Virus record (IMG/VR): IMGVR_UViG_3300034022_000539
Length of the DNA: 64,000 bases
Direction: 5' to 3' (one strand)
Origin: a virus
Taxonomy: Duplodnaviria > Heunggongvirae > Uroviricota > Caudoviricetes
Position numbers and translations under genes: made by a program. Below the pieces are notes generated by a model, which was not told where the DNA came from, did not search any database, and saw nothing but the letters and a program-made list of their open reading frames with translations. Position 1 is the stretch's first letter; each line of letters opens with the position of its first letter. Below are positions 3,031-24,118 of the stretch, piece by piece.

Positions 3031-3032
3031 TA

Positions 3033-5942: not shown

Positions 5943-5948
5943 AAACTC

Positions 5949-6430: not shown

Positions 6431-6449
6431 ATTGTTCGTAACTTTTACC
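6431..6449 (+). promoter_or_regulatory. TTGTTCGTAAC-family upstream box
   Basis: Conserved 11-mer directly after the stop codon. Confidence 0.5.
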
Positions 6450-6476
6450 TAATTTATTTTGGGTTGTCAAATAAAA

Positions 6477-6514
6477 GTTGTATATTAGCTCTATAATTAA
6501 AAGTCAAACACTAT
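6477..6514 (+). promoter_or_regulatory. conserved promoter cassette variant (GTTGTATATTAGCTCTATAATTAAAAGTCAAACACTAT)
   Basis: Same variant as the minus-strand modules at 36108, 58014 and 63722. Confidence 0.7.
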
Positions 6515-8375: not shown

Positions 8376-9065
8376 TTATACGCTATAACCTTCACCTTTT
8401 AAATAGTCTGTAACATCGTTAAGTGCATCTTCAAATCCTTTAGAAGATTCAACACCAGCATTAGGTCCCCATTCTTGATCCATCCAATCTTCTAATGAAG
8501 ACCACATACTATCTTTCCAGTCTTTGTTTTTTGGAAATTCATCCATAAATTCATCTCCAATATTATAAGAGTCAATATCAGACCATTTTTTCTTTTCGTT
8601 TAATGTTTTAGAAAATTGTTCGAATAGTTTAATGTGTTTCATTCCGTGTTTGGTACTCGATGTGTTTGATTCATTAATATCGTATCCATCCCAGTCCCAT
8701 TTGTAACCTTTACCATCAGCAGCTGTACCTTGATAACCATACATTCCTTTTGTAAATCCATCAAAGAATATAGCAACTCCATTGTCTTCAAGCTCTTGAG
8801 CTTTTTCTCTTGCAGCATCTTCATCGATGGCTTCAACTGTAACATCACCATTGTATACTATGTATAAGATTCCTTTATCAAATGTTAATTCAGCTCCATG
8901 GAACCATTCTTCACCATCATTTTCTTCGTCATTCATTGGTTCTTCACCCATTTCGAAGTTAGGTATTTGTGAGAGTCCAAATTTTAGAGCCTCTTTTTCT
9001 GTTTTATAGAAATTTACTTGAGAATAATCAGGTGCATTTTCTGCTACGTAATATACTTTTGCCAT
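8376..9065 (-). CDS. leader-family protein, apparent fusion: a 141-aa leaderless N-part plus a C-part that begins with an internal MKHIKLFEQF leader (Met142, ATG at 8642)
   Basis: The conserved leader sits in the middle of a continuous ORF. This could be a lost stop codon or an internal start. Confidence 0.5.
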   Translation of the reverse strand: MAKVYYVAENAPDYSQVNFYKTEKEALKFGLSQIPNFEMGEEPMNDEENDGEEWFHGAELTFDKGILYIVYNGDVTVEAIDEDAAREKAQELEDNGVAIFFDGFTKGMYGYQGTAADGKGYKWDWDGYDINESNTSSTKHGMKHIKLFEQFSKTLNEKKKWSDIDSYNIGDEFMDEFPKNKDWKDSMWSSLEDWMDQEWGPNAGVESSKGFEDALNDVTDYLKGEGYSV

Positions 9066-9082
9066 TTTATTTTTATTTTATT

Positions 9083-9769
9083 TTATTTATCTAACATTGC
9101 ATTCTGCAATTCTTTAAGTTTTGCTTCAGCTTCTTTTTGTCCTTTTTCTGTTTTTTTATAGACCTCTTTTTTTTCTTTAACATTATCACAACCAATCTTA
9201 TAATCACTACAAGAATATTGTGCTCCTGTTAAAGAATGTGCTGCTTCACTAAATGCTGCCCCAGCATTTTTGTACTCAGTAATGTAATATGAAAGCCAAG
9301 CTTTAGTTTCTGCAGAAAAATCTTTGCTTATTTTTTGCATTTTATCTTCAAGTTTTTTTGCATTAACTTCATTTTCATCTTCGATAGCTTTGTCTCTTTT
9401 AGCAAGACCGTCCATCATTCTTTCTTCTTCAGCTGGACAATTGTTTTTCATATAAGACCATCTAAAAGATTGTCTACTATTTATGAGCGTGTTATATTTG
9501 TTTATAAATTTAGCAAGTTGACCATATTCCTCTTTGGCATCAGCTCCACCTTGTAGTTCTGCTAATTCACCTTCCATTTCAACTTTCTGTGCATCCAAGT
9601 CTGATAATTGAAGCTCAGCTTCATCTTCATCCATGTCTCCTTTTTCTACAGCAGACTGAATTTCTTCCATTCTATCATCAAGTTCAGTTAGATCATTTTG
9701 AAGATCTTTGATTTTTTTGTCATTACTAGCCTCACCAATAAATTGTTCAAATAGTTTAATATGTTTCAT
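9083..9769 (-). CDS. leader-family protein (228 aa; MKHIKLFEQFIGEAS...), acidic coiled-coil-rich
   Basis: N-terminal leader present. Codon use is synonymous relative to paralogs, so conservation is at the protein level. Confidence 0.65.
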   Translation of the reverse strand: MKHIKLFEQFIGEASNDKKIKDLQNDLTELDDRMEEIQSAVEKGDMDEDEAELQLSDLDAQKVEMEGELAELQGGADAKEEYGQLAKFINKYNTLINSRQSFRWSYMKNNCPAEEERMMDGLAKRDKAIEDENEVNAKKLEDKMQKISKDFSAETKAWLSYYITEYKNAGAAFSEAAHSLTGAQYSCSDYKIGCDNVKEKKEVYKKTEKGQKEAEAKLKELQNAMLDK

Positions 9770-9804
9770 GTTTGTATTTTGTTTTTATTTTTGTTTTTAT
9801 TTAA

Positions 9805-10548
9805 TTAGTCCCAAACTTCAGTGTATGTACCACCTACTAACATTACTCCTTGTTGCCAATCAAAATCTAAACGATCCTTTTTGAACATGTAATGTAATTT
9901 AATAATAGATTCAGTTTCTTCTTCTGATAAACCTAATGCAATATTAAGATCTTTTATTTTGTATGCTTTATCGTAAGATTTTGTGATGTGTACTGATGCT
10001 TGACTTCCGTAACCTTGATCTCTTGATCCAATTTGTTTATACTCTGCTTTATCTGCTTTCCAAAATGCAAGTATACGTTGGATCATATCGCTGGTTAGAG
10101 CTTCTTTTTGTGTAGATTTAATCCAATTTTTAATATCTTTAGCGAAATTAACTTTCTTTGGATTTGATACATCAATTGCTGTGTAATAATTTATGTAATC
10201 TTGTCCAGATACACCTATACTAGCTCTACCTGGTTTTGGTTGTGCTTTACTAATAACTTCAAAATACGTATAAGAAGCTTTAATATACATTGGACTTATA
10301 TTACAGTCTTGTAATATCTTTGCTCGTTTTTTGTCAATCCATGACCAATCAGGAGCCTCATATGAATTAGTTATTTGCACATATCCATTACTGTAGTCAT
10401 ATGTTTTAGAATCTTTACCACCTCTTTGGTAACCTACATCTGAAAGGTTTGATAATAAAGCTTTTTCGAAATCTTGTACTAATGCAACTTCTTCAGGATT
10501 TACTTCACCTTCATTAATGAATTGTTCAAATAATTTAATCTTCTTCAT
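9805..10548 (-). CDS. leader-family protein (247 aa; MKKIKLFEQFINEGE...)
   Basis: N-terminal leader. Confidence 0.65.
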   Translation of the reverse strand: MKKIKLFEQFINEGEVNPEEVALVQDFEKALLSNLSDVGYQRGGKDSKTYDYSNGYVQITNSYEAPDWSWIDKKRAKILQDCNISPMYIKASYTYFEVISKAQPKPGRASIGVSGQDYINYYTAIDVSNPKKVNFAKDIKNWIKSTQKEALTSDMIQRILAFWKADKAEYKQIGSRDQGYGSQASVHITKSYDKAYKIKDLNIALGLSEEETESIIKLHYMFKKDRLDFDWQQGVMLVGGTYTEVWD

Positions 10549-10558
10549 ATCTGTTTTA

Positions 10559-11107
10559 TTATTTTGCGTCTATTGATAAGAATAGGCTTTGTCTAATCTC
10601 TATGTTGTTTTGACCAACACTCGACATATATTCTCCTGCTATGATAGTTTCAATTCCAGATACTAATGCGTCGTTTTGCATTCCACTTAGTTTTCTTACA
10701 TATTTACCAGCATCTACATCATCTGCAAATCCAACGTTAATTACAAAATCACTAGGAATTCTAACGAATAACTCTGTACCATCTGGTCTATTAAGACCAT
10801 TAATTTGATCATCTACCCATTCTTGTTTGCTTAATGCAGCCATAATATAAACAATAGCTTCTTTATCTTTGACTTGTTTCATAACTTCGTCAGCAATAAT
10901 CTCAGCTCCTTCTTTATCAGCCCATTTTGACCAAACTTGATTAATTTCTTTAAGAGTATCTTGAACGTCTCCTTCAAATTTTATTTTTTCAACCTCTTTT
11001 TTAAATGCAAATAACACTTTTCCAGCGATACCTTTAGCACCATACATACCTGTCATTTGATATGCTTTTTCATTTACGAATTGTTCGAATAATTTAATGT
11101 GTTTCAT
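10559..11107 (-). CDS. leader-family protein (182 aa; MKHIKLFEQFVNEKA...)
   Basis: N-terminal leader. Confidence 0.65.
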   Translation of the reverse strand: MKHIKLFEQFVNEKAYQMTGMYGAKGIAGKVLFAFKKEVEKIKFEGDVQDTLKEINQVWSKWADKEGAEIIADEVMKQVKDKEAIVYIMAALSKQEWVDDQINGLNRPDGTELFVRIPSDFVINVGFADDVDAGKYVRKLSGMQNDALVSGIETIIAGEYMSSVGQNNIEIRQSLFLSIDAK

Positions 11108-11110
11108 GTT

Positions 11111-11428
11111 CTATTTAGATATTTTATTCTTGCTTTCAAATTCAGTTACTTTAGCATATGCCGAAGACTTCATATCGCCTTTTGCTTTTTTAACAAGTTC
11201 TGCGAACTCTTTAGCTGTTTTCATGTCTGGAAATGGAAGTGAAGTTGTATAATCTGGTCCACTATATACATCAAATGGTGCATATTGATCATATTCTTGT
11301 TCTGTATAAACTCCAAATTGATCACTTTCTATATCAATGATGTTTTCTTTTTTAATAGGAAGGAATACTATCCATTCTTGAGATTTTCCTTCTTTTACGA
11401 ATTCTTCATATAATTTTGCGTACTTCAT
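11111..11428 (-). CDS. leader-family protein (105 aa; MKYAKLYEEFVKEGK...)
   Basis: N-terminal leader. Overlaps the next gene by 1 nt. Confidence 0.65.
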   Translation of the reverse strand: MKYAKLYEEFVKEGKSQEWIVFLPIKKENIIDIESDQFGVYTEQEYDQYAPFDVYSGPDYTTSLPFPDMKTAKEFAELVKKAKGDMKSSAYAKVTEFESKNKISK

Positions 11429-12021
11429 TATGTCATTTTTGGGTATTTTTTCTTAATTTCTTTATAGAATTTCTTGTAGTTTGTACCAGACATGTGATCT
11501 TCAGCTGCTCTAAGCAAATCTTCTAAAGAAGTCCACATTGTATTTGCTAATTGGTCTTGTGTTGTTGAAACTTGAGCCATTCTGTCTAGAATAGAATCAA
11601 TTATTTCAGGATTTAAAACAGTTTCAGTGCTAGGTTTTTCTGGACCCGCTGCTCTTTTAAGTGTCCACCAATCAACTTTCTTAGGAATAGTGTATGAAAC
11701 AATTCCTTTTTGTTGGTCATTTGGACTAATTTGTCCAGGTTTTCCAATATTACTAGTGATTTTATCTAAATCTAAATTATCATCAAAACCTTTTAATGCT
11801 TTCTGAATATCTTTAGTTAGATCCACATCTGCCATATTTGGCTCGGTTCTAAGATATATCATTGAAGTCGATGACATGTTAAATTCAACGCCTTTTACTT
11901 TAGAAAGCTCTTTCTTAAATTGTTTTTGATACTCATCAACATCTAACCCATTATTATATCCTGGGAAAATATCCATCTTAGCTTCATTAATAAATTCTTC
12001 GTATAGTTTTATGTACTTCAT
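11428..12021 (-). CDS. leader-family protein (197 aa; MKYIKLYEEFINEAK...)
   Basis: N-terminal leader. Confidence 0.65.
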   Translation of the reverse strand: MKYIKLYEEFINEAKMDIFPGYNNGLDVDEYQKQFKKELSKVKGVEFNMSSTSMIYLRTEPNMADVDLTKDIQKALKGFDDNLDLDKITSNIGKPGQISPNDQQKGIVSYTIPKKVDWWTLKRAAGPEKPSTETVLNPEIIDSILDRMAQVSTTQDQLANTMWTSLEDLLRAAEDHMSGTNYKKFYKEIKKKYPKMT

Positions 12022-12305
12022 TATTTCTTTTTTATGTTTTTACCATTTGGTGTTAATTCTCCGTTATCATCCATCACCGTAAAATGTTCTCTCGAATTTC
12101 CTTGTGTTAATTCTATAGATAAACCTTTGTTCATACCACCTGATTCAGTTGAAGACCACAATCTAACTACAGTCCAAATACCTTTTTCACCTTCAACTTT
12201 AACCTTATCCCATGTCTTAACTTCAGTTTGATCAGTAAATGATTTTATTAATTTATCTTCATTAGACTCGTTAATAAAATCTTCGTATAGTTTTGCATAT
12301 TTCAT
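12021..12305 (-). CDS. leader-family protein (94 aa; MKYAKLYEDFINESN...)
   Basis: N-terminal leader. Confidence 0.65.
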   Translation of the reverse strand: MKYAKLYEDFINESNEDKLIKSFTDQTEVKTWDKVKVEGEKGIWTVVRLWSSTESGGMNKGLSIELTQGNSREHFTVMDDNGELTPNGKNIKKK

Positions 12306-12326
12306 TTGATTGTCTGTATTATTTTA

Positions 12327-13208
12327 TTATATATCATAATCTTCTATTGTTTCAGGACGAGTCCATCTTCTAAGATCACCTATCCAATCTTCTAATCTAT
12401 AAGGGTGTTCCCAATATGGTGGTTTAGGTATGGTTAGTTTAGGTACTTTTAATCTATCACCATCTCTGGCTTCTAACCATTTGGTTTTCTTTTTAAGCTT
12501 TTTTACTATTTGTAGTAGAGTTACTTTGTCTTCAGAGTGCAGCGCCCATTCACCATTAATAGGTAAAAGATCATGACGAGTACATGCTAATGCAATTGAT
12601 TCTACTCTTGTAAAGATTCTTATTTGAGTTCCAGGTTCAACGATAGTTATTGCTTGTTGATTCTTGATTTGATTTTCCCATATACCTAAGACAGTTGCGT
12701 ATGCACCTTCTGTAATTTGTCCAGGTCCATATGCATTAAAGAAATAAAATATGTGTGATTTAAGATTGCTCCATTTTTGGTGCTTTTTAATAAGATCTAC
12801 ATTTTGTTTTTTGTACCAACTATATGGTGAAAGATCTTGATCTTTTTGTCCAAAATGTGATGAAGATGCTGAATAAATTAGGATTGCATTTTGATTTATA
12901 GCTAATCTTATAATTTGACTAGTTCCTTCAACACATGAAGATTGCACCTTTTCTATTTCTTGATATGATTGATGTATACGAGAATATTCTCCAAAGTGGT
13001 AGATTTTATCAATCTCAAATCTTTCTAGTAATCGAAGAGCATCTTGAGTTCTACCTTCTATATACTGTACACCTTGAATATGATTAGATTTTAGGCCAGT
13101 AGAATAATCATCTAGTGAAACTATTTTTGTATGCGGTTTCTCAGTAAGCAATGACTTAATAAGATGTGTTCCGATGAATCCTGCTCCTCCTGTTACTAAT
13201 GTATACAT
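12327..13208 (-). CDS. NAD(P)-dependent sugar epimerase/dehydratase (SDR, Rossmann TGGAGFIGTHL), 293 aa
   Basis: Has the N-terminal GxxGxxG Rossmann motif typical of UDP/GDP-sugar epimerases/dehydratases. It is first in an operon of glycan genes. Confidence 0.75.
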   Translation of the reverse strand: MYTLVTGGAGFIGTHLIKSLLTEKPHTKIVSLDDYSTGLKSNHIQGVQYIEGRTQDALRLLERFEIDKIYHFGEYSRIHQSYQEIEKVQSSCVEGTSQIIRLAINQNAILIYSASSSHFGQKDQDLSPYSWYKKQNVDLIKKHQKWSNLKSHIFYFFNAYGPGQITEGAYATVLGIWENQIKNQQAITIVEPGTQIRIFTRVESIALACTRHDLLPINGEWALHSEDKVTLLQIVKKLKKKTKWLEARDGDRLKVPKLTIPKPPYWEHPYRLEDWIGDLRRWTRPETIEDYDI

Positions 13209-13215
13209 ATTTTAA

Positions 13216-13992
13216 TTATTTAGTTCCTAGCCAACTGTAATATTCTCTCCATCCATGCTTGACTAATGTAAATTGTTTAGGATCTCTTAAATATGTTAGA
13301 TCAAAAATCTTTTCATCGCTTCCAATAAAATTCCTATCTAAGCAAAAACCTATTGTCTTATTTATCTCATTCATGTACCAATCTATTTTCCATGCTGGAC
13401 AAACGAATGCTCCACCTTGTATATGTCTTTGTTGTGAAAGAGTGTGCCATTCTGGATCTGGTATTGCAAAATCTAAATTGTGTGTAAAATGCATTATAGT
13501 ATCCATTGATAGTTTTTCTATATTAGGCCAAGTTTCTGGATAATCCATATCTTCTCTAATACCACCTGCATCTACCCATATTAAATGAGTTGCGTCTTTA
13601 TGTAATTTAAGTGCTTCATTTAAAAAGAAGATCTTATTGAACATTACTATATTATATAAAGGATAATTCATTTCAGGTACATGATCCCAATGTCTTTTCT
13701 TTAAAAATTCATCATCATGCATAACTTGATCTATTTTAGTGAACCAAGTCTTGTATGCTTCTAAATCTTCTATTGAGTTTATTACGTATGTGGTCATTTC
13801 TCCAGTTGGATCTACTTCAGATCTCATCTGTCTAATTCTTTCTTCGAACTTAGATTCTGTAAAAACCACCATATTAGCCCTAAGACTAAGTGCTCTTTGC
13901 ATCCAATGTAAATATGTGTGATATGATTGTGCGAAATCTTTCCATTCAGATCTACCAATATCATAAAGTGCCGTAATAACTAATGGTTTCAT
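13216..13992 (-). CDS. hypothetical protein in glycan cluster (258 aa)
   Basis: A long ORF tightly packed in the operon. No motif was recognised. Confidence 0.55.
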   Translation of the reverse strand: MKPLVITALYDIGRSEWKDFAQSYHTYLHWMQRALSLRANMVVFTESKFEERIRQMRSEVDPTGEMTTYVINSIEDLEAYKTWFTKIDQVMHDDEFLKKRHWDHVPEMNYPLYNIVMFNKIFFLNEALKLHKDATHLIWVDAGGIREDMDYPETWPNIEKLSMDTIMHFTHNLDFAIPDPEWHTLSQQRHIQGGAFVCPAWKIDWYMNEINKTIGFCLDRNFIGSDEKIFDLTYLRDPKQFTLVKHGWREYYSWLGTK

Positions 13993-14005
13993 TGCTAAAT
14001 TTTAT

Positions 14006-14740
14006 TTATATCCAAGACCACTCTACTCTAATGCCCTTATGTTTAATATGTATCTTATCTACATCAAAATGATTTGATCTACTTTGATTATTAAAAATAG
14101 TGTCAAGTGTAAATCCGTCTTTATTTAATATAGTTGGCACAAATCCTTCAGAATATCCATGTACACCATTTAGTAATAAATCTGTTATGTGACGTAGACT
14201 TTTATTTGAGAATCTAACAATTGGAAAGAATGATCCAAATAATTCACCATTTTTATTGATTTGGTCACCATCACCTGGAAATCTATCAAACCATAATGTA
14301 TTACTGTATGTGTTAGCATCAATTTCGGGAATGTTAGGTTGACTAGTCACTCCTTTGTTCTTAAATATGTAATAAGAAATAAAATCAGTATTGTTATTTT
14401 CAAATGCTTTAAAGAATTCTGACCAATTATCACATACTAAGTCATCATCCATAAACCAATACCAATCTTCATTGGGATTAAGCATATAATAATATGCCAT
14501 TCTAAGATGTGCATAGAACCAAATAATATTTCTATTACCTTGTTGATTCCACCAATGTAATTTACTAACATCACTTCTAAAATTAAAAAGATCTCTTACT
14601 TTTTGTTCATCATATTCTATTCCAATAGGTGCTCTATCAGATAAAAATTCAAAGTCAAAATCTACAGTTTTCCAATACGATTCATATGATTTAAATGTAT
14701 TAGCACATGTACATACTATTGTTTTAGACATATTGTTCAA
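14006..14740 (-). CDS. hypothetical protein in glycan cluster (244 aa), possible glycosyltransferase
   Basis: Operon context only. Confidence 0.5.
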   Translation of the reverse strand: MNNMSKTIVCTCANTFKSYESYWKTVDFDFEFLSDRAPIGIEYDEQKVRDLFNFRSDVSKLHWWNQQGNRNIIWFYAHLRMAYYYMLNPNEDWYWFMDDDLVCDNWSEFFKAFENNNTDFISYYIFKNKGVTSQPNIPEIDANTYSNTLWFDRFPGDGDQINKNGELFGSFFPIVRFSNKSLRHITDLLLNGVHGYSEGFVPTILNKDGFTLDTIFNNQSRSNHFDVDKIHIKHKGIRVEWSWI

Positions 14741-15545
14741 TTATTTTTTCATTCCATTCAGGAATTCTATTATATTGATGTGCAATTTTGTACACTATGT
14801 TGTTTGAGTCAATCAAAACATTTTCTTGTAATTTAGGTAAACCATATTTTTTATCAATAGCTTTTCCTAAACCCCATTCTATATGTTGAAACGTAGGACC
14901 TGATAATGAACAGTGAACTACCCAACCTTCATTAGGTTTAAAGATTTTACAATTATCAATTAAGTTCTTATAAATTAAAATATTAAATGCAGCTTGATCC
15001 CTTATATCATGGCCTTTTAATGAACCATCTACTAAGTGTTGTTGCATTCTTAATGTTTTTACTAATGAATCTTTTTTACCACACATTACTCCACTACAAA
15101 CCACCTCATATTGTCTAATAAAATCTACATATTCTGGAAATGCTTTATTCATAACATCCATATTCCAAGGCTCTTCATTATGTAATACACCTTCTGATCC
15201 AGCAAAGAAATCATATTTGTCTAGTTCTAACATTTCAAATGGATCTGCTTGAAAGCAAACGTCAAATACATCGGTTACCATAAATAAATCATAAGGACTA
15301 TTCTCTATCCAATTTGCAGTATGAATTAATCTACTATCATTAATTGTTAATCCTGGATCTGATTCAATAGCATGGAATTTAATTCCATTTAGATTTAAAA
15401 CATTTCTATCTTGAGCATTCATATCAGCTCCAATAAGTACTACTTCACCGTCTTTTACATGTTTTTTAAAACTATTAGCCCAAACCCTAATTTTATCGAT
15501 ATTATTGGTTACATTGTTGCTAACTCCTGTTAATACTTTTTTCAT
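14724..15545 (-). CDS. hypothetical protein in glycan cluster (273 aa), possible GT-A glycosyltransferase (DVFD)
   Basis: Operon context. Has a DxD-like motif MVTDVFD. Confidence 0.5.
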   Translation of the reverse strand: MKKVLTGVSNNVTNNIDKIRVWANSFKKHVKDGEVVLIGADMNAQDRNVLNLNGIKFHAIESDPGLTINDSRLIHTANWIENSPYDLFMVTDVFDVCFQADPFEMLELDKYDFFAGSEGVLHNEEPWNMDVMNKAFPEYVDFIRQYEVVCSGVMCGKKDSLVKTLRMQQHLVDGSLKGHDIRDQAAFNILIYKNLIDNCKIFKPNEGWVVHCSLSGPTFQHIEWGLGKAIDKKYGLPKLQENVLIDSNNIVYKIAHQYNRIPEWNEKIIEQYV

Positions 15546-15546
15546 T

Positions 15547-16179
15547 TTAACAATTATGTAATTTATGTGTCAACATTTCATTTACACCAAATATTGTAGG
15601 CCAACTATACTCTAGTGCCCATATTTGTGGATCGTTTCCATGTGCTCCTCCAGAAAATGAAGAAGTTGATATATTTTTTGCTATACTTTCCATTAGTTTT
15701 ACGTAAAAATCTAATGATCTTTTCTTAATTTGATCTTTCTTTACAATACATTGCATACCACCTATAAACATAAATGGCAATTTATATTCAATTTCCATTT
15801 TTTCACAGTAATCAATAGCTTGCTTAATACAACCATCATTATCTCTGATATAAGTTGGTCCAATTGGATAAAATGGTTTTGTAAAATCACAATCATTGAT
15901 AAATTCTACACAAGTTTCACAATCATGTTCGAATGGATTTCCTTGTAAGAATATTGTGTAATCAGCTAAATTGTACCAATTTGTTACAATATGATGTAGG
16001 TGTGTATGCGCATCTTTACCATAATTTAACAGATTTCTTTCAAATAAATGATTATCTGCTGCATTTTTATTGTAAATAGTTACTTTATACTTAAGTTTTT
16101 TTGTCCAAGATACATCTTCATTGTATTTAGCAACAACTGCTTCTATTGTCATAAAACTCTTTCTATTTTTGTACACCAA
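15547..16179 (-). CDS. hypothetical protein in glycan cluster (210 aa)
   Basis: Operon context. Confidence 0.5.
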   Translation of the reverse strand: MVYKNRKSFMTIEAVVAKYNEDVSWTKKLKYKVTIYNKNAADNHLFERNLLNYGKDAHTHLHHIVTNWYNLADYTIFLQGNPFEHDCETCVEFINDCDFTKPFYPIGPTYIRDNDGCIKQAIDYCEKMEIEYKLPFMFIGGMQCIVKKDQIKKRSLDFYVKLMESIAKNISTSSFSGGAHGNDPQIWALEYSWPTIFGVNEMLTHKLHNC

Positions 16180-17396
16180 CCTTTTGATGCGCTATGTGGC
16201 CAAACAATCCACTTATATGGTTTTGGTCCTTGCAAGTCTACATGAATGTGTATCCAATCACCAGGTTGTTGTAATTTCTGAGAAATCTCATGGTCGTTTA
16301 AATCCTTTCTATAAACTGAAGTACCATCTTCTGATTCCATAATCACTGCACAAAAAGTGTAGTCTGTTTCAGTAAGCACAGATCTATGCACATCTATAAT
16401 GTGTTTGAATATATGATGAAAACTATTATCATAATCTTCTACATGAGGATTAGGTGCAAGTTTATTAGATGTGGTCCATTGTTGTACTGCACGATCTCTA
16501 AGTCTAATACCTGCGTATCTTTCCCAATCTGCAATAGTTCTAACTCTACCTAATCCATATTTACCATAAATATCTTCTTCTGAATCAAATGACTCTCCAT
16601 CAATTCCTAATAGTTTACGAGTTTTTTCATGAGTTCTTGTGTTTCTCTTACCCCATTCTGAATCATCATCCCATTGTTTAGTTCTACCTTTACGAGTATA
16701 TTCATGCCACGCAATAATTTTATGTGGATGGAATAAATCATATCCGTGTGTAAATGCTCTAACTGCAATAGTAATCTCTTCACCATGAAAATAGAATTCT
16801 GGATCATGTTGTACCTCTATTGCAAATTGACCTACTGTAAATGCGAAGTGTGCTGAATAAAATCTTGAAGGAATTGGTTCTGTCATATTTTCCCATCCTG
16901 GAATTGTAGCAGGTAAAAAGAATATTACACCTTCTGGAGTAAATCTATCAAAATTCATTAACCATGGTGCTTGAGTTCTGCCCTTTGGATCGATTTCTGG
17001 ATTATATGATGAAATATAGCTTGTAAGTAATGGTTTAGCATGACCTTTAGCTTGTAAACCCCTTAGCATATTAATCAATTCAGTGTCCCAGTTTCTAATA
17101 AACCTATGATGACTATCTAATTGAAATGTATAAGTTTCACCTTGATAAAGTTGTTGAATGCTATTTCGTGCCCAACATGCTCCAGTTGAATCTTTATAAT
17201 TTACATCTAAAATTCTAAATCGCGAATCGTTTTTATATTGATCTAATGTATCCCATGTATCTTCTTCGGAATGTTGCCAACATATACCAAATCTAAGACG
17301 ATCTGGAAATTCAGCGTTTAGTAAACAATCCTTAAGAGTATTCAATAACTCTGGATCTCTGTAACTTGCAATTTGAATAAATATGGTTTCTTCCAT
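16149..17396 (-). CDS. putative glycosyltransferase (415 aa; QIASYRDPELLNTL...FGICWQHSEED...)
   Basis: The N-terminal region is a GT-like fold. It is the first gene after the promoter at 17408-17432. Confidence 0.5.
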   Translation of the reverse strand: MEETIFIQIASYRDPELLNTLKDCLLNAEFPDRLRFGICWQHSEEDTWDTLDQYKNDSRFRILDVNYKDSTGACWARNSIQQLYQGETYTFQLDSHHRFIRNWDTELINMLRGLQAKGHAKPLLTSYISSYNPEIDPKGRTQAPWLMNFDRFTPEGVIFFLPATIPGWENMTEPIPSRFYSAHFAFTVGQFAIEVQHDPEFYFHGEEITIAVRAFTHGYDLFHPHKIIAWHEYTRKGRTKQWDDDSEWGKRNTRTHEKTRKLLGIDGESFDSEEDIYGKYGLGRVRTIADWERYAGIRLRDRAVQQWTTSNKLAPNPHVEDYDNSFHHIFKHIIDVHRSVLTETDYTFCAVIMESEDGTSVYRKDLNDHEISQKLQQPGDWIHIHVDLQGPKPYKWIVWPHSASKGWCTKIERVL

Positions 17397-17499: not shown

Positions 17500-20220
17500 T
17501 TATGGTGCTATAGGATCTTCTTTTCTATTGTGTGTAATTATACCATTTGCTACGTATACATCATTAGACTCTACGTCTAATTTATAAACTTTAAATGATC
17601 CACTATTTTTTACAATAGAAGTAATTAGATGTTCATATCCATCTTGATTAATAAATGAATCGCCAACTAAAATATCATTAGCTTTCATTACAGACCATAC
17701 TGAATTTCTTTTTATAATATGCACGTGATCTTCACTTGAAGTTAATAAACCATCATTAAAACTTAACACGCTATTTACAATGTGTTCAGTATTTTGAGTA
17801 ACTGTAGCCGATGTATTAGATAAAGTTGGATTTGTTTGAGACCATTGTATTAAATTCTGATAATTATCTCCATCTGGCATATTACCTATTATCATTGAAG
17901 ATAATTCCATACCAATTGTTAACGATTCTATTGTAGCGTGAGTACCGTTTGATAATTTAACTAAAGTTCCTTCTAGTAAACATCCTCCTGGAGTTCCGGC
18001 ACATAATTCAAATATAGTATACTCAGGTGGTGTTGTATCAGGCTGAACTAATCTCCAACACGTTCCAGATGCATCGTCTACATATACTAATTGATCAAGA
18101 TTATATAAATCACTATATGGTCCCACATACGAATATACACCTCCATCATTTCTTTCTGCTAACCATGATCTATATACAGTTGGAGTAGGTTTATCTGGTG
18201 TTGCTGTAGGATTTGGAATATATTCGCTGTAACTACATCCAAATTCACTTGTACATCCAATAGTTTGGTCAATTACGAAAATATCATCTGAAATTATAAA
18301 TACCATTTCTGATGAGTCCCATGTACTTGGCACTGAACTACTACATACTGAATATACTGCTCCAGATCTTCCATTATAATAATAAGGTGAAGCTAGCATT
18401 TCATTAAATGTTCTTTGTATATAACTTCCAAAATTATAACCTAATCCATATCTAAATATGTCCACTGTATCAGCTACCCATACATGATAACATGTACCCG
18501 AAGGTGCATCAGTTGGTCTCGGAGTTGATGTCGGAGGAACTAAGGTCGGTTCTGGTATATATGTAGTTGGTGTTGGTGGAATCGGTGTTGCTGTTGGATA
18601 ACCTGCACCTGCACCCGAAGATGAATAACATTGAGATCCAATTTGTGTTATAATAATATTTTGATAATATGCAATTGCTTTTACACATAAAACAACAGGT
18701 TGAGAATATGGTGTTAAATACACTGTATCACTTCTACCATCACACATTGTATATTGTATGTAACCACTATTCCAACTATCTGTTAATTGAAAATTATAAG
18801 TATAACAAGGTACAGCTGTTGCTGTTGGTGGAATTGGCGTTGCCGTTGGTAGGTTTAACGAACTGTCAAGTATTCTTACATTAACTGTATCTAATACAAT
18901 ACTACTAGCATTAGTAAGTTTTACAATCAACCATTCATCACCTTCTGTTAAATTATCAGATTTTGTGGTTAATTCAAATACACCTTGACCATTTACACCC
19001 GAAGTAGTAGTAATTACTACATAACCATTGTTGATAGCTTCAACCAAATCACTTGCATTTGCATTATATGGTCCTAATTCCCACCAAAGTGTTGTTGGTG
19101 ATGCATTTAAATATTGTGTGTCAACTACAAATGTAATTTTTACATTTTCTTCATTGACTTGTGTTTTATTAGCAGAAATACTATAAGTAGGTGGAAACCA
19201 ATACTCATCAGTTACATAACCAAGTACACTATCGTAGTATACAGCATATGCTGATCCTGCTTCATAATACCATCCACTGGGCGCTGTTTCACACGTAGCT
19301 ATATAACTATTGTCACATAAAGTTTGTATGCCAGAGATTAAGCCTGTGTTGATCCAGTTACCGTTACTATCAAATGTAACTTGATCGTATCTTCCAACTG
19401 GAGTAGTTGCAGTAGATAAGCCATAATAATAATTACCAGGATATGTTGATGCTAATGAACTTTGTACCATTAATTGTGCATCGTATGAATTACAAATACC
19501 TAATAAATTATATTCAAAATAAGTTTGATCTGTTGAATTATTAACATCGTCATTTCCACCTGGAACATCATCAGTTATTAAAATAATAAGTTTAATTGCA
19601 TCAGATCTAAATGATCCTGCAATATTATTAGACAATATTTCATTGATCCCTAAACCACCGGGTTCTGGCGCACCTTGACCATATCCTAAAGGAAAACTAG
19701 GTGTAGCTAATAAATTAAGTTTTGTTTGAAAATCAGTAATTGAACCAACATTACCTAATGGTTGCATACATGTAATAAATTGAGTTCTATTATTAAATGT
19801 GTTTATCACAGCTTTTTGTGATGCTGGTAAATTTAAGTATATAGATGTCTGTCCATAGTTGTTTGACGGTGGAGATGTTAGATTACCGGCATATTCATCA
19901 AATATGCAAAGTCCTACTCTATAATTACCTAATGATTCACTATCGATAGTACTTAAAATATTAGCAATACCAGCTTTAACACCATTGATTGCACCGTCCA
20001 TAGATCCAGTATAGTCAACTAAAAATACTATATCTAACCCTGTAGTACATTGAGTTGGAATAGTTAATTTATTTTGGTTTATAGCTAGACCATTTGTAGA
20101 ATAAGTCTTAAAAACATTTGAATTGTTAATATTATTAGGACTTAATGGATCATAAGCTAAACTTACAAAACTAGTCGGTGGTACACAAGATTGCCCATAT
20201 GAGCTTACAGATAATGCCAT
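17500..20220 (-). CDS. large structural/surface protein: N-terminal vWA domain (DIVFLVDYTGSM, MIDAS-like), PT-rich linkers (PTATPIPPTATAVP), C-terminal Hint/BIL-type autoprocessing domain; 906 aa
   Basis: vWA motif at aa ~60-230. The Hint domain has blocks CLLEGTLVKL (Cys747), TSSEDHVH and VYKLDVESNDVYVANGIITHN, followed by an RKEDPIAP tail. Confidence 0.8.
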   Translation of the reverse strand: MALSVSSYGQSCVPPTSFVSLAYDPLSPNNINNSNVFKTYSTNGLAINQNKLTIPTQCTTGLDIVFLVDYTGSMDGAINGVKAGIANILSTIDSESLGNYRVGLCIFDEYAGNLTSPPSNNYGQTSIYLNLPASQKAVINTFNNRTQFITCMQPLGNVGSITDFQTKLNLLATPSFPLGYGQGAPEPGGLGINEILSNNIAGSFRSDAIKLIILITDDVPGGNDDVNNSTDQTYFEYNLLGICNSYDAQLMVQSSLASTYPGNYYYGLSTATTPVGRYDQVTFDSNGNWINTGLISGIQTLCDNSYIATCETAPSGWYYEAGSAYAVYYDSVLGYVTDEYWFPPTYSISANKTQVNEENVKITFVVDTQYLNASPTTLWWELGPYNANASDLVEAINNGYVVITTTSGVNGQGVFELTTKSDNLTEGDEWLIVKLTNASSIVLDTVNVRILDSSLNLPTATPIPPTATAVPCYTYNFQLTDSWNSGYIQYTMCDGRSDTVYLTPYSQPVVLCVKAIAYYQNIIITQIGSQCYSSSGAGAGYPTATPIPPTPTTYIPEPTLVPPTSTPRPTDAPSGTCYHVWVADTVDIFRYGLGYNFGSYIQRTFNEMLASPYYYNGRSGAVYSVCSSSVPSTWDSSEMVFIISDDIFVIDQTIGCTSEFGCSYSEYIPNPTATPDKPTPTVYRSWLAERNDGGVYSYVGPYSDLYNLDQLVYVDDASGTCWRLVQPDTTPPEYTIFELCAGTPGGCLLEGTLVKLSNGTHATIESLTIGMELSSMIIGNMPDGDNYQNLIQWSQTNPTLSNTSATVTQNTEHIVNSVLSFNDGLLTSSEDHVHIIKRNSVWSVMKANDILVGDSFINQDGYEHLITSIVKNSGSFKVYKLDVESNDVYVANGIITHNRKEDPIAP
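17527..17982 (-). other. Hint (Hedgehog/intein-like, BIL-type) domain at the C-terminus of the 906-aa protein
   Basis: Intein blocks A (C-L-L-E-G-T-x-V), B (T-x-x-H) and F/G (VANGIITHN) are all present. HN is followed by Arg, not Cys/Ser/Thr, and there is no C-extein. This points to autoprocessing rather than splicing. Confidence 0.7.
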
Positions 20221-20233: not shown

Positions 20234-23200
20234 TTATTTCGGTGTACAATTTGAGTTAGTAAATATTGCAGTTACTGTAAATCCAACTCCATCGTAGTCT
20301 GATTGATTACCAGTAACATATACATATTTATTATCCCATAATTGAGCAGCGACATTATTGTATATGCTTTCTGCAAATTTAGTATTACTTGCATGATCCC
20401 AAACTAATAATACTGATGCGGTTCCAGTTGCATCTACACCCCATAGAGTGTATCTAACTTCTTGTGTATTATCACTTACACCGTATGAAGACTCAATTCC
20501 AGTTAAAATCATACCTTCTAAAGCAAATGTATATGGTATTAATACAAATGATTTTTGAAGTGATTGATTTGTAATTTTTTCATCTCTTGGAGTTGCACAA
20601 ATTGATACATGTTCATAACATGATCCTATGCCCGCTTCTCCAGGTTGTCCAGGTTGTCCATTGATACCTGATGTACCATTTGTTCCTGAAGAACCATTTG
20701 TACCATTTGTTCCTGAAGAACCATTAGTTCCAGATGTACCATTTGTACCATGTGTTCCTGAAGTTCCATTAGTACCACTTGTACCATCTCTACCAGAAGA
20801 ACCGCTTGTACCATCTTTACCTGAAGTTCCATTAGTACCACTCGTACCATTTAAACCAGAAGTACCATTAGTTCCTGATGTTCCATTAGTTCCATTAATT
20901 CCTGAAGAACCATTAGTTCCAGATGTACCATTAGTACCACTTGTACCATTAGTTCCAGATGTACCATTAATACCGCTTGAACCGCTTGTACCATCTCTAC
21001 CTGAAGAACCATTTGTACCAGAAGTACCATTAGTTCCTGAAGAACCATTAGTTCCTGATGTTCCATTAGTTCCAGATGTACCATTAGTACCATGTGTTCC
21101 TGAAGTTCCATTAGTTCCAGAAGTTCCATTAGTACCGCTTGTACCATTAGAACCATTTATTCCTGAAGATCCATTAGTTCCTGAAGTTCCACGCTCACCG
21201 TTTGTACCACTAGTTCCATTTGTACCTGAAGAACCATTAGTTCCTGAAGTACCATTTGCGCCAGATGTACCATTAGTTCCTGAAGAACCATTAGTACCAC
21301 TTGTACCGTTAGTTCCATGTGTTCCTGAAGAACCATTAGTTCCTGATGTTCCATTAGTTCCTGATGTTCCATTAGTACCACTTGTTCCATTAGTTCCATT
21401 AGTTCCTGAAGTTCCACGCTCTCCGTTTGTACCACTAGTACCATTTAAACCAGATGTTCCATTAGTTCCTGAAGAACCATTAGTACCACTAGTACCATTA
21501 ATTCCAGAAGAACCACTAGTACCATTAATTCCAGAAGAACCATTTGCACCTGAAGTTCCATTTATACCATCTCTACCTGAAGAACCATCTGTACCTGAAG
21601 TTCCACGCTCTCCGTTTATACCATCAGTTCCACTTGTTCCATTTATACCACTAGTACCATTAGTTCCAGAAGTTCCGTTAGTTCCTGAAGTTCCGTTAGT
21701 TCCATGTGTACCTGAAGTACCATTAGTTCCAGAAGTTCCGTTAGTTCCACTTGTTCCATTTGCACCTGAAGTTCCGTTAGTACCATCTCTACCTGAAGAA
21801 CCATTTGTACCACTAGTACCATTAGTTCCTGAAGTTCCGTTAGTTCCACTTGTTCCATTTGCACCTGAAGTTCCGTTAGTTCCATGTGTACCTGAAGTTC
21901 CGTTAGTTCCAGAAGAACCATTAGTTCCTGAAGATCCATTTGTTCCAGAAGAACCATTAGTACCTGATGTACCACGTTCTCCATTTATACCACTTGAACC
22001 ATCAGTTCCAGAAGTTCCATCTAATCCATTACGACCATCAATACCACTAGTTCCATTAGTTCCAGAAGTTCCATTTATACCGCTTGTGCCATTTGAACCA
22101 TTAGTACCACTAGTTCCATTTGTTCCAGAAGAACCATTAGTTCCATTTGTTCCAGAAGAACCATTAGTACCAGATGTACCATTAGTTCCACTAGTTCCAT
22201 TTGTTCCAGAAGAACCATTAGTTCCTGAAGTTCCATTTGAACCATTAGTACCACTCGTACCGTTTGTTCCAGAAGAACCATTAGTTCCTGATGTACCATT
22301 AGCACCGCTTGTGCCATTTGAACCATTTAAACCCGATGTACCATTAGTTCCAGAAGAACCATTAGTTCCAGAAGTTCCAGTATCACCTTTAGCGCCTGAA
22401 GTTCCATTAGTACCAGATGTACCATTAGTTCCAGAAGAACCATTAGTTCCTGAAGAACCATCAGCACCATCAAATCCAGATGTACCATTATTACCATTAG
22501 TTCCTGAAGTTCCGTTAGTTCCTGAAGTTCCGTGTGATCCATCCATTCCACTAGTACCATTAATACCAGAAGATCCATCATTACCTCTTGAACCTGAAGT
22601 TCCATCAGTTCCATTTGAACCTGAAGTTCCATTAGTTCCTGAAGTTCCATTAGTTCCTGAAGAACCATTAGTTCCTGAAGTTCCATCAGATCCATTTGTA
22701 CCATTTGTTCCATTTGTTCCAGAAGATCCATCAGAACCATTAGTTCCATTAGTTCCATTTGTTCCAGAAGAACCATTAGTTCCATTTGTTCCAGAAGAAC
22801 CGCTTGTTCCAGGATTTCCAGTTACACCGCTTGTTCCATTTGTTCCATTTGTTCCAGAAGAACCATTTGTTCCAGAAGAACCATTAGTTCCTGAAGAACC
22901 ATTTGTTCCTGAAGAACCATTAGATCCATTTGTTCCAGATGTACCATTAGAACCCGCAGGTCCTTCAGTTGCACCTAAAGATGAAACTATATGTGAATAA
23001 TTTGAAACGCCTTCTGTATAAAATTTAATAGTTCTATTTTGATTATCATCGTTAATAGCATAAATTTGAACTAATACTTTATCAGTAGGACTTATATAAT
23101 GTTGTTCTAAAAATAAGTCTTGATATACATCCACTGGAATTGCAGTAGAAGTGTCCCATCCTATTAATGTAGGTGTAGTTGTTCCCCACACAGCAATTGG

Positions 23201-24118
23201 TATTCCACCTGCATCTGTACGAGTAACCTTAACATATACTTGAATAGCATGTGAATCTACTTCTTTAGTGAAGTGCATTAAAAATGATTGAATACCAGCA
23301 GATACTACTGCAACACCTAATCCAACTGGAGTTATAAATTGAGTAACTAATACATCTGATTGCAACGGAGTTAAATCAGTAGTTACTATTTGTTGTACAC
23401 TAGATACTGGGATTGGTGAAATTTCATTAAGATCATTTGCACCGCCACCATTATTAACTACAGTAACTGATTCATTCATATAGAATATTTGACCAGTGCT
23501 ATAACCTGCTTCTCCTTGTAAACCATTAACTCCACTTGAACCTGAAGTTCCATCAATTCCTGATGTACCATTAGTACCACTTGTTCCATCAATTCCAGAA
23601 GTACCATTAGTACCATCTAAACCGTTTAAACTAACTTCTACCCATGGATCATTACCATTAGTTGAAGATGGTGTATATAATTGTGGTAAAAATGTTGGAG
23701 GTCCACCTATAACATTTGTGTATATTTGTGTACTATTAGGTTTTAAAAGACCTGCGCGAACCCATTGTGGTAACGCTTGCCATTCAGTATCACCTAAAAC
23801 ACCATTATTGCCCCAATATCCTTTAGGTATTAAGACATAAAATTTATTTTCTTCAATGACATAAACTAGCATACCAACTGATCGAATACCCGTTGTATAT
23901 CCACCATCGTTTGAAACTGTAAAACCAATATGTGTAACTGGTGCAGGTGCTTCACCCCAAATAGGTAAGGCATTTCTTTCTTCAATTGTAAATACCTTTT
24001 GATACCCACCCTTTACATGTTGTGCATGTACAATTCCTTCATAAGGACTTAATGATGAACTTGGCGAAATAAAATTACCAAAGGCGTATTGTGTTGAAAC
24101 TGGTCTAGTAAATCCCAT
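20234..24118 (-). CDS. collagen-like repeat protein, 1294 aa (Gly-X-Y with X,Y = T/S/N/D; about 250 triplets) with N- and C-terminal globular domains
   Basis: A GTSGTNGSSGTNG tract (uninterrupted Gly every third residue) spans aa ~385-1140, with a shorter one at aa ~166-212. It ends GQPGQPGEAG before the C-terminal domain. The plus-strand 790-aa PLVPxVP ORF is its antisense artefact. Confidence 0.8.
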   Translation of the reverse strand: MGFTRPVSTQYAFGNFISPSSSLSPYEGIVHAQHVKGGYQKVFTIEERNALPIWGEAPAPVTHIGFTVSNDGGYTTGIRSVGMLVYVIEENKFYVLIPKGYWGNNGVLGDTEWQALPQWVRAGLLKPNSTQIYTNVIGGPPTFLPQLYTPSSTNGNDPWVEVSLNGLDGTNGTSGIDGTSGTNGTSGIDGTSGSSGVNGLQGEAGYSTGQIFYMNESVTVVNNGGGANDLNEISPIPVSSVQQIVTTDLTPLQSDVLVTQFITPVGLGVAVVSAGIQSFLMHFTKEVDSHAIQVYVKVTRTDAGGIPIAVWGTTTPTLIGWDTSTAIPVDVYQDLFLEQHYISPTDKVLVQIYAINDDNQNRTIKFYTEGVSNYSHIVSSLGATEGPAGSNGTSGTNGSNGSSGTNGSSGTNGSSGTNGSSGTNGTNGTSGVTGNPGTSGSSGTNGTNGSSGTNGTNGTNGSDGSSGTNGTNGTNGSDGTSGTNGSSGTNGTSGTNGTSGSNGTDGTSGSRGNDGSSGINGTSGMDGSHGTSGTNGTSGTNGNNGTSGFDGADGSSGTNGSSGTNGTSGTNGTSGAKGDTGTSGTNGSSGTNGTSGLNGSNGTSGANGTSGTNGSSGTNGTSGTNGSNGTSGTNGSSGTNGTSGTNGTSGTNGSSGTNGTNGSSGTNGTSGTNGSNGTSGINGTSGTNGTSGIDGRNGLDGTSGTDGSSGINGERGTSGTNGSSGTNGSSGTNGSSGTNGTSGTHGTNGTSGANGTSGTNGTSGTNGTSGTNGSSGRDGTNGTSGANGTSGTNGTSGTNGTSGTHGTNGTSGTNGTSGTNGTSGINGTSGTDGINGERGTSGTDGSSGRDGINGTSGANGSSGINGTSGSSGINGTSGTNGSSGTNGTSGLNGTSGTNGERGTSGTNGTNGTSGTNGTSGTNGTSGTNGSSGTHGTNGTSGTNGSSGTNGTSGANGTSGTNGSSGTNGTSGTNGERGTSGTNGSSGINGSNGTSGTNGTSGTNGTSGTHGTNGTSGTNGTSGTNGSSGTNGTSGTNGSSGRDGTSGSSGINGTSGTNGTSGTNGTSGTNGSSGINGTNGTSGTNGTSGLNGTSGTNGTSGKDGTSGSSGRDGTSGTNGTSGTHGTNGTSGTNGSSGTNGTNGSSGTNGTSGINGQPGQPGEAGIGSCYEHVSICATPRDEKITNQSLQKSFVLIPYTFALEGMILTGIESSYGVSDNTQEVRYTLWGVDATGTASVLLVWDHASNTKFAESIYNNVAAQLWDNKYVYVTGNQSDYDGVGFTVTAIFTNSNCTPK
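20700..22970 (-). repeat. collagen-like (Gly-X-Y) coding repeat tract, also low-complexity at nucleotide level
   Basis: Nonamer-scale repetition of GGWACWRSTGGWACHART units is visible in the sequence. Confidence 0.75.

Follow-up and report, generated by a model that had tools for sequence, protein, structure and literature searches.

Bacterial-intein-like (BIL) domains of the A type, reportedly described by Amitai et al. in 2003 and by Dassa et al. in 2004, and pretoxin-HINT (PT-HINT) domains lie inside their host proteins and release a large C-terminal toxin or variable domain. Statements about A-type BIL chemistry made here draw on reviews and on general knowledge. BIL domains are reported to give mainly N- and C-cleavage products (PMC7664689), and passages in PMC7664689 (citing its ref 16) and PMC5874633 state that some of them ligate without a nucleophilic side chain. 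For BIL2 of the Tetrahymena thermophila protein BUBL, an isopeptide bond from a Lys ε-amine to a C-terminus has been reported (PMC8616854). Here we describe a Hint domain that, with a short tail, makes up the last 160 residues of a 906-residue vWA-domain protein. It is encoded on IMG/VR virus record IMGVR_UViG_3300034022_000539 (Caudoviricetes), a 64,000-nucleotide stretch referred to below as the window, and is the sole Hint domain within it. On balance, the sequence and the predicted structure lead us to favor the reading that these 160 residues are a self-excising, A-type-BIL-like Hint cassette seated in the flexible C-terminal tail of an adhesin- or fiber-like protein. The precursor runs from the vWA domain through Ig-like and Cys-containing modules, with Pro/Thr (PT)-rich linkers between them, to a poly-Gly segment, the Hint domain and an eight-residue tail. 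Its C-terminal features are as follows.

17500..20220, minus strand: gene for the 906-residue precursor, stop codon included (open reading frame list)
17983..18009, minus strand: end of the N-extein, ELCAGTPGG, residues 738-746, with the predicted scissile bond Gly746/Cys747 (Gly-rich −1 region)
17527..17982, minus strand: Hint domain of 152 residues, whose codons run exactly from Cys747 to Asn898 (profile, AlphaFold2 model, alignments)
17980..17982, minus strand: Cys747 (Cys1), putative nucleophile of the N-S acyl shift, invariant in alignments A1, A2 and A4
Residues 747-756, minus strand: block A, CLLEGTLVKL (read from the sequence)
17719..17742, minus strand: block B, TSSEDHVH, residues 827-834, with S829-x-x-H832 as the T/SxxH motif
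17527..17589, minus strand: blocks F/G, VYKLDVESNDVYVANGIITHN, residues 878-898, with E884, D887, H897 and N898 (TIGR01443, alignment A1)
17503..17526, minus strand: C-extein tail RKEDPIAP, eight residues, with the conserved +2 Lys
17521-17523, minus strand: Lys900, the conserved +2 Lys (K184 of alignment A1, invariant)

The domain shares with A-type BIL and PT-HINT domains the Hint fold, Cys1, the T/SxxH motif, a C-terminal His-Asn and the lack of both a +1 nucleophile and a homing endonuclease, as well as residence in a variable region of a non-conserved, surface-type protein. By analogy, N- and C-terminal cleavage would be expected, with occasional ligation to an amine. It differs from them in its terminal position with a tail of median length seven residues, in a near-universal Lys at +1 or +2, in hosts from phage tail-fiber regions, and in a PT-HINT score of 14.1 bits against a cutoff of 27.7. 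BIL2 of BUBL (6y75, 6tmm) is the best match by both structure and profile and also has Gly at −1, but the two share only about 17% identity. BIL2 is eukaryotic and lies between two ubiquitin-like domains; its N-extein is ubiquitin-like, whereas the one here is vWA adhesin-like, and its acceptor Lys belongs to a folded C-extein or to other proteins, whereas the Lys here sits in a tail of 1-11 residues.

More distant systems resemble the locus in part. Hedgehog and Hog proteins also carry a C-terminal Hint on a secreted or surface-type protein, with a Gly-Cys scissile bond and thioester release of the N-terminal part, but they differ in having no terminal His-Asn, in their sterol-recognition region and cholesterol transfer, and in a weaker fold match (1at0, E = 1e-5). 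Mini- and split inteins of the gp41-1 type share small size, marine phage origin and a block F/G of the form F/Y-x-A-N-x-I-L-T-H-N; they occupy conserved enzymes (helicase, ribonucleotide reductase, polymerase) and have Ser or Cys at +1 and a long C-extein, none of which applies here. Peptidase S74 offers a functional analogy only, as a self-cleaving C-terminal fiber domain that is absent from the mature protein; its catalysis is by a Ser-Lys dyad, not by a Cys thioester and Asn lyase, its fold is unrelated, and no homology was detected. Eukaryotic vWA-Vint proteins (PF14623/Vwaint) likewise combine vWA and Hint in one polypeptide. In our case the pairing appears to be coincidental rather than a conserved architecture, because many orthologs lack the Hint, which is a swappable cassette. 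Four assignments were ruled out: a B-type BIL, because His-Asn is present and invariant; a Hedgehog/Hog domain, because the terminal Asn is present, eight residues follow it and the Pfam scan gives no Hint PF01079 match at E ≤ 1; a Vint protein, because the same scan gives no Vint PF14623/Vwaint match at E ≤ 1; and a canonical intein, because of the Arg at +1, the variable-tail site and an Intein_splicing score of 21.5 bits against a cutoff of 35.8.

Single-sequence searches identify the domain only weakly, and the evidence therefore had to come from profiles and structure prediction. Searching PDB sequences with the full-length protein by phmmer returned only a spurious MarR match (E = 0.95), and a PHROGs scan of the 906 residues found no family. 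The Pfam Hint-family models stay below threshold in the query, Intein_splicing covering the C-terminal half only, and PT-HINT reaches 19.0 bits (cutoff 27.7) in the homolog P0013. Among NCBIfam models, TIGR01443 (intein_Cterm) passes its cutoff over residues 877-898 (17.5 versus 15.6 bits) and is the only match at E ≤ 1; no N-terminal splicing-region model was found. A profile of the C-terminal region retrieves solved BIL and intein chains, the best being 6y75/6tmm at E = 3.5e-7. The AlphaFold2 model of this region is confident and all-β (pLDDT 83.7, pTM 0.77). Foldseek identifies BIL2 of Tetrahymena BUBL as its closest structure in the PDB (6y75, also 6tmm; E = 4e-10), followed by a Clostridium thermocellum BIL (2lwy, E = 9e-9), inteins at about 1e-7 to 1e-5 and Hedgehog 1at0. 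There are 56 PDB matches at E ≤ 1e-3, and the best 50 of these 56 are all BIL domains, inteins or Hedgehog. By profile and predicted fold, and well beyond anything that chance would give, the last part of the protein is a genuine Hint domain, nearest to bacterial-intein-like domains. A preliminary description made from the DNA sequence had proposed the Hint/BIL assignment, which these profile and structure matches bear out; blocks A, B and F/G are also present as it quoted them.

The catalytic residues are conserved amid extensive divergence. When 31 diverse relatives with 22-47% identity to the query are aligned, no column is invariant except those of Cys1, the block-B His and the terminal His-Asn. 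In alignment A1, S828, H832 and H834 of block B are invariant (H834 also within the vWA family), as are E168, D171, H181 and N182, corresponding to E884, D887, H897 and N898. The class-1-like set of Cys1, S/TxxH, block-F Asp and His-Asn is thus complete. Invariant catalytic residues in sequences that diverge to 22% identity are, in these alignments, a signature of selection on catalysis, as expected of an active domain. The His-Asn that defines block G of class 1 inteins is present and invariant, and the domain accordingly falls outside the B-type BILs, which lack it. As in A-type BILs, the residue after His-Asn is as a rule non-nucleophilic across the family, the host region is variable and the domain is sporadically present. 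The site itself, a variable Gly-rich tail eight residues from the C-terminus, is not that of a class 1 intein. The Hedgehog-type arrangement that had been suggested earlier does not fit, given that the terminal His-Asn is invariant here and missing from both Hedgehog proteins and B-type BILs; the chemistry of the C-terminal junction therefore appears to be under selection as well.

The tail carries the most distinctive signature. We analyzed 197 complete domains, taken from the best matches that were fetched out of the 3997 found by the profile search; the protein ends rest on metagenomic gene calls. Position 1 is Cys in 196 of the 197. A Lys occupies +1 in 43 domains and +2 in 142, together 185/197 (94%), whereas the +1 residue is A, K, V, R, I, L or others, Ser in 10/197, and never Cys or Thr. 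Tails have a median length of seven residues and 160/197 are no longer than 12. Thirty of the proteins stop within two residues of the Asn, with ends such as THNK, THNIK and THNAK, so that a C-extein can consist of a single Lys. Strict conservation of His-Asn and Lys even in such cases argues for a part of the C-terminal junction in the reaction, and it is for this reason that we reject a pure Hedgehog-type reading. On the N-terminal side, Gly occupies −1 in 71/197 (36%), and 66/197 have a GGG run shortly before the domain; phage NCTB and the loci L007 and L014 likewise have poly-Gly ahead of Cys1. Within the vWA family, +1 is variable (R, Y, K, A, G, L, S, V, N), and +2 is Lys in 20 of 20 aligned sequences. 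Among its 48 Hint-bearing members, Pro occurs in the last three tail residues of 46, and GGG is found within 12 residues before Cys1 in 31. For the query, the preliminary description correctly noted that HN is followed by Arg (Arg899), leaving no nucleophile at +1. Its statement that there is no C-extein is contradicted by the tail RKEDPIAP, which contains the conserved Lys900; in such tails the distal part is homologous to the C-terminus of a Hint-less allele. The AlphaFold2 model has its last strand finishing at the penultimate His, followed by a disordered tail (residues 187-190, pLDDT < 50); because the tail is unstructured in the model, the Lys does not appear to be conserved for reasons of fold.

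Some relatives have a longer, possibly folded C-extein, in which HN-xK is followed by a Cys-rich tail of 20-45 residues, for example KKDALCSPEDYCTRGHPCEDPMRPC. These tails (P0052, P0129, P0131-P0133, P0135, P0137 and P0141-P0145; loci L009-L013) sit on S/T-repeat-rich proteins of about 1100-1200 residues from viral contigs.

Comparison with orthologs reveals an empty site. A large protein collection yields 105 homologs, all with the same MALSV N-terminus as the 906-residue protein: 48 carry the same Hint domain of 151-153 residues and 57 are Hint-less, ending in a Gly run followed by Lys or Arg, acidic residues and Pro. Hint-less orthologs occupy the same syntenic locus, namely P0011 in L004 and P0062 in L003. 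The junction is best seen in one pair. The Hint-less P0012 reads GGGGG-N-LETPI (GGC GGA GGA GGT GGA / AAT / TTA GAA ACA CCG ATT), and the Hint-bearing P0007 reads GGGGG-[C..HN-RKDEF]-LEPPI (GGT GGA GGC GGA GGA / TGT...CAT AAT AGA AAG GAT GAA TTT / TTA GAA CCA CCG ATT TAA). The flanks are homologous, sharing TTA GAA (A/C)CA CCG ATT, and conservation extends into the intergenic DNA downstream. From these sequences, the unit that is present or absent is the Hint plus xK(D/E).., placed between the poly-Gly linker and a short ancestral tail. Read in this way, the Hint domain is an insertion or deletion within the tail, which leaves a genuine, if tiny, C-extein.

The cassette also moves independently of its hosts. 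P0107, P0109 and P0110 have Hints 72-83% identical to that of the query on unrelated N-exteins of 128 residues, whereas P0009 and P0010 have N-exteins 64-72% identical to that of the query and Hints of only 50-52% identity. Against the closest relative, L001 (10001-12775), synonymous divergence (Ks) declines along the gene, at 0.36 for the vWA region, 0.105 for the middle and 0.021 for the Hint, a strong gradient that points to a recently exchanged 3′ segment. The two Hints differ by one amino acid at a Ks of 0.02, at which dN/dS is uninformative, and the comparison is used only as evidence of mosaic recombination; by these sequence comparisons the vWA gene is a recombination mosaic. C-terminal modules are also swapped among family members, P0011 having a different last domain. 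In the related phage L006, the cassette is attached to another, small gene, which is absent from the corresponding site of the window. L006 (IMGVR_UViG_3300042888_002167) encodes there, at 5614-6483, a Tyr/Cys/Gly-rich protein of 289 residues with a Hint about 76% identical to that of the window. A neighboring 211-residue open reading frame is 88% identical to window 58970-59605, and window 57077-58969, which matches the place of the L006 cassette, contains small open reading frames and a tRNA-Ala instead. Because Hint-less orthologs exist at the locus and the cassette is found on unrelated hosts, the Hint appears to be dispensable for the core function of the vWA protein, and this dispensability favors a self-removing cassette over an obligatory attachment device.

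Several proteins contain two or more Hints in tandem with xK-type linkers alone between them, as in P0154 (THN-IKPPP-CFVKG...THN-IKFEGFE at the C-terminus). We know of no described function for back-to-back Hint arrays; they fit a self-removing element able to pile up harmlessly. Arrays of 2-6 or more copies occur in P0154, P0248, P0249, P0233, P0220, P0157, P0247 and P0262, some copies being 2-5 residues apart, Lys included (for example LVHN-KF-CFLPEQ). A separate layout, in P0146, P0147 and P0149 (the last on a 165-kb contig), has the order C-terminal intein part, extein, N-terminal intein part (IntC-X-IntN), as in the "fractured genes" of split inteins: the last ~38 residues of a Hint (ANGIxTHNK), a middle domain of ~130 residues and the first ~105 residues from Cys1, with Lys rather than a nucleophile at +1. 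This could reflect trans-ligation of modules, or a gene-calling artifact in tandem arrays.

The Lys-tailed subfamily is large. A profile search of 1.84 billion cluster representatives gave 3997 matches at E ≤ 1e-3, of which 886 reach E ≤ 1e-10 and 79 reach E ≤ 1e-30. Among the best 150, the alignment almost always ends a few residues from the end of the protein, almost all are Lys-tailed, and the host proteins range from 138 to 3399 residues. With a word-matching filter the search gave short proteins only; the exhaustive search revealed the large hosts. Sampled members show no above-threshold Pfam Hint annotation, and their N-exteins are mostly unannotated, with an occasional FN3 or DUF5977. 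Ten IMG/VR viral contigs of 21-165 kb carry the cassette at the end of proteins of ~290-1200 residues. The best structural matches in BFVD are uncultured Caudovirales proteins named "Hint domain containing protein", "Fibronectin type III" and "PASTA", together with three proteins of phage NCTB. Automated UniProt names of the first kind indicate that the domain has already been noticed in uncultured phages. The literature on Hint domains of phage tail fibers and virion proteins yielded no description of the subfamily, of its Lys signature or of its processing. In phage NCTB, a 1304-residue "large intein domain protein" adjoins a tail-fiber gene and ends YSGGGGGG/CVALDTP...VLVHN/APVDQKH; a "putative tail fiber protein" of the Erwinia jumbo phage pEa_SNUABM_5 ends RG/CIVFG...ILVHN/TDIVAQAEKT. 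Cassette relatives thus sit in annotated tail-fiber genes or modules.

The closest cellular relatives are about 29 Flavobacterium loci with 29-34% identity, xK included. Scanning cellular genomes with close-subfamily patterns gave no relative, and it was the broader alignment that found these loci. Their proteins of ~290-420 residues have an FN3-like or poly-Gly N-extein followed by CFVEGT...ANGILTHN-[VIFY]K and 3-6 further residues. In Flavobacterium sp. ACN2 the Hint gene lies directly after tail-fiber and tail-fiber-assembly genes, neighbors that indicate a prophage or tail-like module, and the Flavobacterium loci in general are probably prophage or tailocin-like modules. The loci (L020-L048) often contain two copies 8-11 kb apart, and in L021 the Hint gene (2332-3477) directly follows tail-fiber and tail-fiber-assembly genes identified by PHROG matches. 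The next-best cellular matches are classical helicase inteins with Ser at +1 and long C-exteins, which mark the boundary of the subfamily.

The reaction that these features suggest would begin after folding, when Cys747, assisted by S829 and H832, attacks the carbonyl of Gly746 in an N-S acyl shift and places the 746-residue N-extein on a thioester. Asn898, assisted by His897, would cyclize to a succinimide and break the Asn898-Arg899 bond. The thioester could be hydrolyzed, giving a mature protein of 746 residues that ends in TPGG. Alternatively, it could undergo aminolysis by the ε-amine of Lys900 or by the α-amine of Arg899 freed on Asn cyclization; the tail would then be joined again to the N-extein, much as in splicing though no +1 nucleophile takes part. 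By either route the 152-residue Hint would leave, and the product would resemble the Hint-less orthologs with their tail of poly-Gly, Lys or Arg, acidic residues and Pro. The Hint plus xK cassette would be exchanged by recombination among genes of phage tail-fiber regions, and it may either be of no consequence to the phage or serve transiently as a cap or chaperone. Judging from the conserved residues and the model, we consider it likely that the Hint detaches from the N-extein by autoprocessing. If it does, hydrolysis alone has nearly an even chance of being the outcome; ligation to the tail is quite possible, if not to be expected; and transfer to another molecule is doubtful. A bolder proposal, which we regard as speculative and unlikely, is that the Lys-tailed C-terminal Hint forms a distinct class in which the +1/+2 Lys is a dedicated thioester acceptor, an isopeptide bond being made before Asn cyclization frees the Hint ("isopeptide splicing").

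Several points weigh against a self-excising, A-type-BIL-like cassette on a fiber-like protein. Apart from the P0007/P0012 pair, the likeness between Hint-bearing and Hint-less tails is largely compositional. Hydrolysis would by itself suffice for simple removal, leaving the strict conservation of His-Asn and Lys without an explanation, and a Lys at +2 faces away from the junction if the strand is extended. The Pfam Hint models are sub-threshold, so the named BIL type is assigned by features and not by a curated model, and reviews are divided over whether there is any ligation by A-type BILs (PMC7765530 versus PMC5874633). We infer a virion or structural location of the vWA protein from neighboring genes only, and the "tail fiber" PHROG matches of the upstream gene stem from its collagen-like repeats. 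As no cultured phage is close, the term virion structural protein is used provisionally.

The nearest competitor to self-excision is cleavage at the N-terminal junction only, with the Hint as a transient chaperone or cap in the manner of S74 and with His-Asn and Lys merely tuning the active site. BIL domains do yield predominantly cleaved products (PMC7664689), self-cleaving C-terminal chaperones are established for phage fibers and spikes (S74; PMC7824862), and the Hint recurs with tail-fiber modules. We nevertheless hold this to be unlikely: a domain that is dispensable in close orthologs and swapped among unrelated proteins does not behave like a co-evolved chaperone, tandem Hints have no obvious chaperone rationale, and the penultimate His and terminal Asn of inteins serve the C-terminal reaction rather than N-cleavage, which Hedgehog and B-type BILs achieve without them (PMC7765530). 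Less probable again is Hedgehog- or BUBL-like conjugation in trans, in which the Gly746 thioester would be passed to a capsid or tail Lys, a glycan hydroxyl or the host envelope and so anchor the vWA adhesin. For BIL2, the closest structure, ATP-independent conjugation of the N-extein to lysines on other proteins has been reported (PMC8616854), the Gly-Gly at −1/−2 resembles a ubiquitin-like C-terminus, and in cytoplasmic phage assembly without a sortase-like system a Hint thioester might provide a simple covalent linker. Transfer to another molecule is disfavored, however, because the vWA protein works without the domain in Hint-less orthologs at the same locus, because the cassette occurs in tandem arrays and on many unrelated N-exteins, some very small, which suits one acceptor poorly, and because the built-in Lys would compete with an external acceptor. 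An invariant Asn and a nearby Lys would also be needless, and only eight residues follow the Hint, with no adaptor region of the sterol-recognition or any other kind.

Two further readings fare worse. A catalytically silent Hint that stays with the mature protein, forming a tip for structure or receptor binding at its distal end, would make use of a compact β fold at the far end of a fiber-like protein; but all catalytic residues are invariant while the remainder diverges to 22% identity, and presence or absence of the Hint among orthologs argues against receptor binding, which makes this very improbable. An ordinary selfish class 1 mini-intein with canonical four-step splicing would explain the Cys1, T/SxxH and His-Asn, the sequence proximity to phage mini-inteins such as gp41-1, the existence of an empty-site allele and the helicase inteins with +1 Ser among the next cellular relatives. 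We give it hardly any credence: the +1 residue, Arg in this protein, is non-nucleophilic in about 95% of the subfamily, the insertion lies in a variable, unstructured tail and not in a conserved active-site motif, the domain has 152 residues and no homing endonuclease, and one Lys can suffice as the C-extein.

The remaining features of the precursor belong to its N-terminal and middle parts.

19315..20049, minus strand: integrin β-I-like vWA domain, about residues 58-302 (Pfam, AlphaFold2, Foldseek)
20002..20016, minus strand: MIDAS motif D69-Y-T71-G-S73, a DxTxS variant (family alignment)
18808..18852, minus strand: PT-rich linker 1, residues 457-471 (read from the sequence)
18502..18600, minus strand: PT-rich linker 2, residues 541-573 (read from the sequence)
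18178..18219, minus strand: PT-rich linker 3, residues 668-681 (read from the sequence)

The vWA domain with a MIDAS-like DxTGS motif and the PT-rich middle, both anticipated in the preliminary description, are confirmed. The Pfam VWA score of the query (18.6 bits) is under the gathering score of 23.8, but six of the nine homologs scanned exceed it at 26.4-33 bits; of the other three, two score 18.8-20.1 bits and one has no VWA match. In a family alignment of 17 sequences, D69, T71, S73 and D217 (of LITD) are invariant. The AlphaFold2 model of residues 1-345 has a pLDDT of 84.5, and Foldseek matches it to integrin β-subunit I-like domains at E of about 3e-9. Beyond the vWA domain, the middle of the protein consists of β-rich and Cys-containing modules with the three PT-rich linkers between them.

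The gene directly upstream (20234-24118, minus strand) encodes a collagen-like protein of 1294 residues, which has tail-fiber PHROG matches through its collagen-like repeats. The product of a gene further upstream contains an SprB repeat and is PT-rich in one region. Gene order is conserved on related contigs, including L001, L003 and L004, and an endolysin-type amidase and one tRNA in the window fit a phage. Megablast of 19 kb of the window and tblastn of the neighboring 513- and 811-residue proteins found nothing among cultured phages. A G+C content of ~31%, the SprB repeat and the Flavobacterium relatives suggest a host among the Flavobacteriia or Bacteroidota. Glycosyltransferase and sugar-nucleotide genes occupy 8376-17396 and 45739-49822 (both minus strand), the former run lying immediately downstream of the vWA gene. 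They comprise PF11397 GlcNAc-transferase-like, DUF3431, HtrL_YibB, NAD-epimerase and GT9/GT1 fusion genes in an arrangement conserved in all syntenic contigs, and jumbo phages of Xanthomonas and Stenotrophomonas have genes 42-47% identical to that of the GlcNAc-type transferase. These sugar genes, the three PT-rich linkers and the PT-rich SprB-repeat neighbor together suggest that the phage O-glycosylates its own fiber proteins.

Antisense to the collagen-like gene, the plus strand (20628-23000) contains a 790-residue open reading frame, which most likely stems from Gly-X-Y repeat composition and is not a gene. Downstream of the vWA gene, no terminator satisfied the criteria of a scan. The intergenic segment 17397-17460 (minus strand), upstream of the GlcNAc-transferase gene, contains the motif GC(T/G/A)(A)TAAA(A)CAAAAACCCGATATATA(A/G)TATAACAATTAAAA, conserved across divergent relatives including L018 and L019, as well as one sigma-70-like match. 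The conserved intergenic motif AAAACCCGATATATA does not recur as a promoter through the window, where its core occurs once more only, with two mismatches.

Taken by its sequence features, the domain is A-type-BIL-like. What sets it apart from described BILs is that it is terminal, that its C-extein is minimal and bears a Lys, and that it is associated with phage tail-fiber modules. It is ordinary as a Hint autoprocessing domain, and unusual in its architecture, its abundance and its hint of Lys-directed chemistry. The textbook intein, Hedgehog and BIL schemes do not account for an invariant His-Asn together with Lys at +1/+2 and one-residue C-exteins. The family also marks an annotation gap, as Pfam is sub-threshold and PHROGs are empty for the protein, yet 886 cluster representatives match at E ≤ 1e-10. 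Nearly all of the best 150 matches lie at the C-terminus and have a Lys tail, so that annotation probably overstates the mature size of many phage fiber-region proteins by about 17 kDa. The Flavobacterium loci offer culturable systems in which processing can be studied. A compact 152-residue C-terminal domain that is predicted to generate a thioester and has a built-in acceptor could aid protein ligation. Isopeptide splicing, if true, would provide capping or functionalization of the C-termini of phage fiber proteins without ATP or an enzyme, could stitch modules together in the split-looking (IntC-X-IntN) or tandem members, and would be both a phage counterpart of the ubiquitin-like conjugation of BUBL and a new ligation tool. 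If self-excision is correct, fiber and adhesin proteins would have a second, unrelated self-cleavage route of maturation alongside S74, carried by a cassette that spreads between genes.

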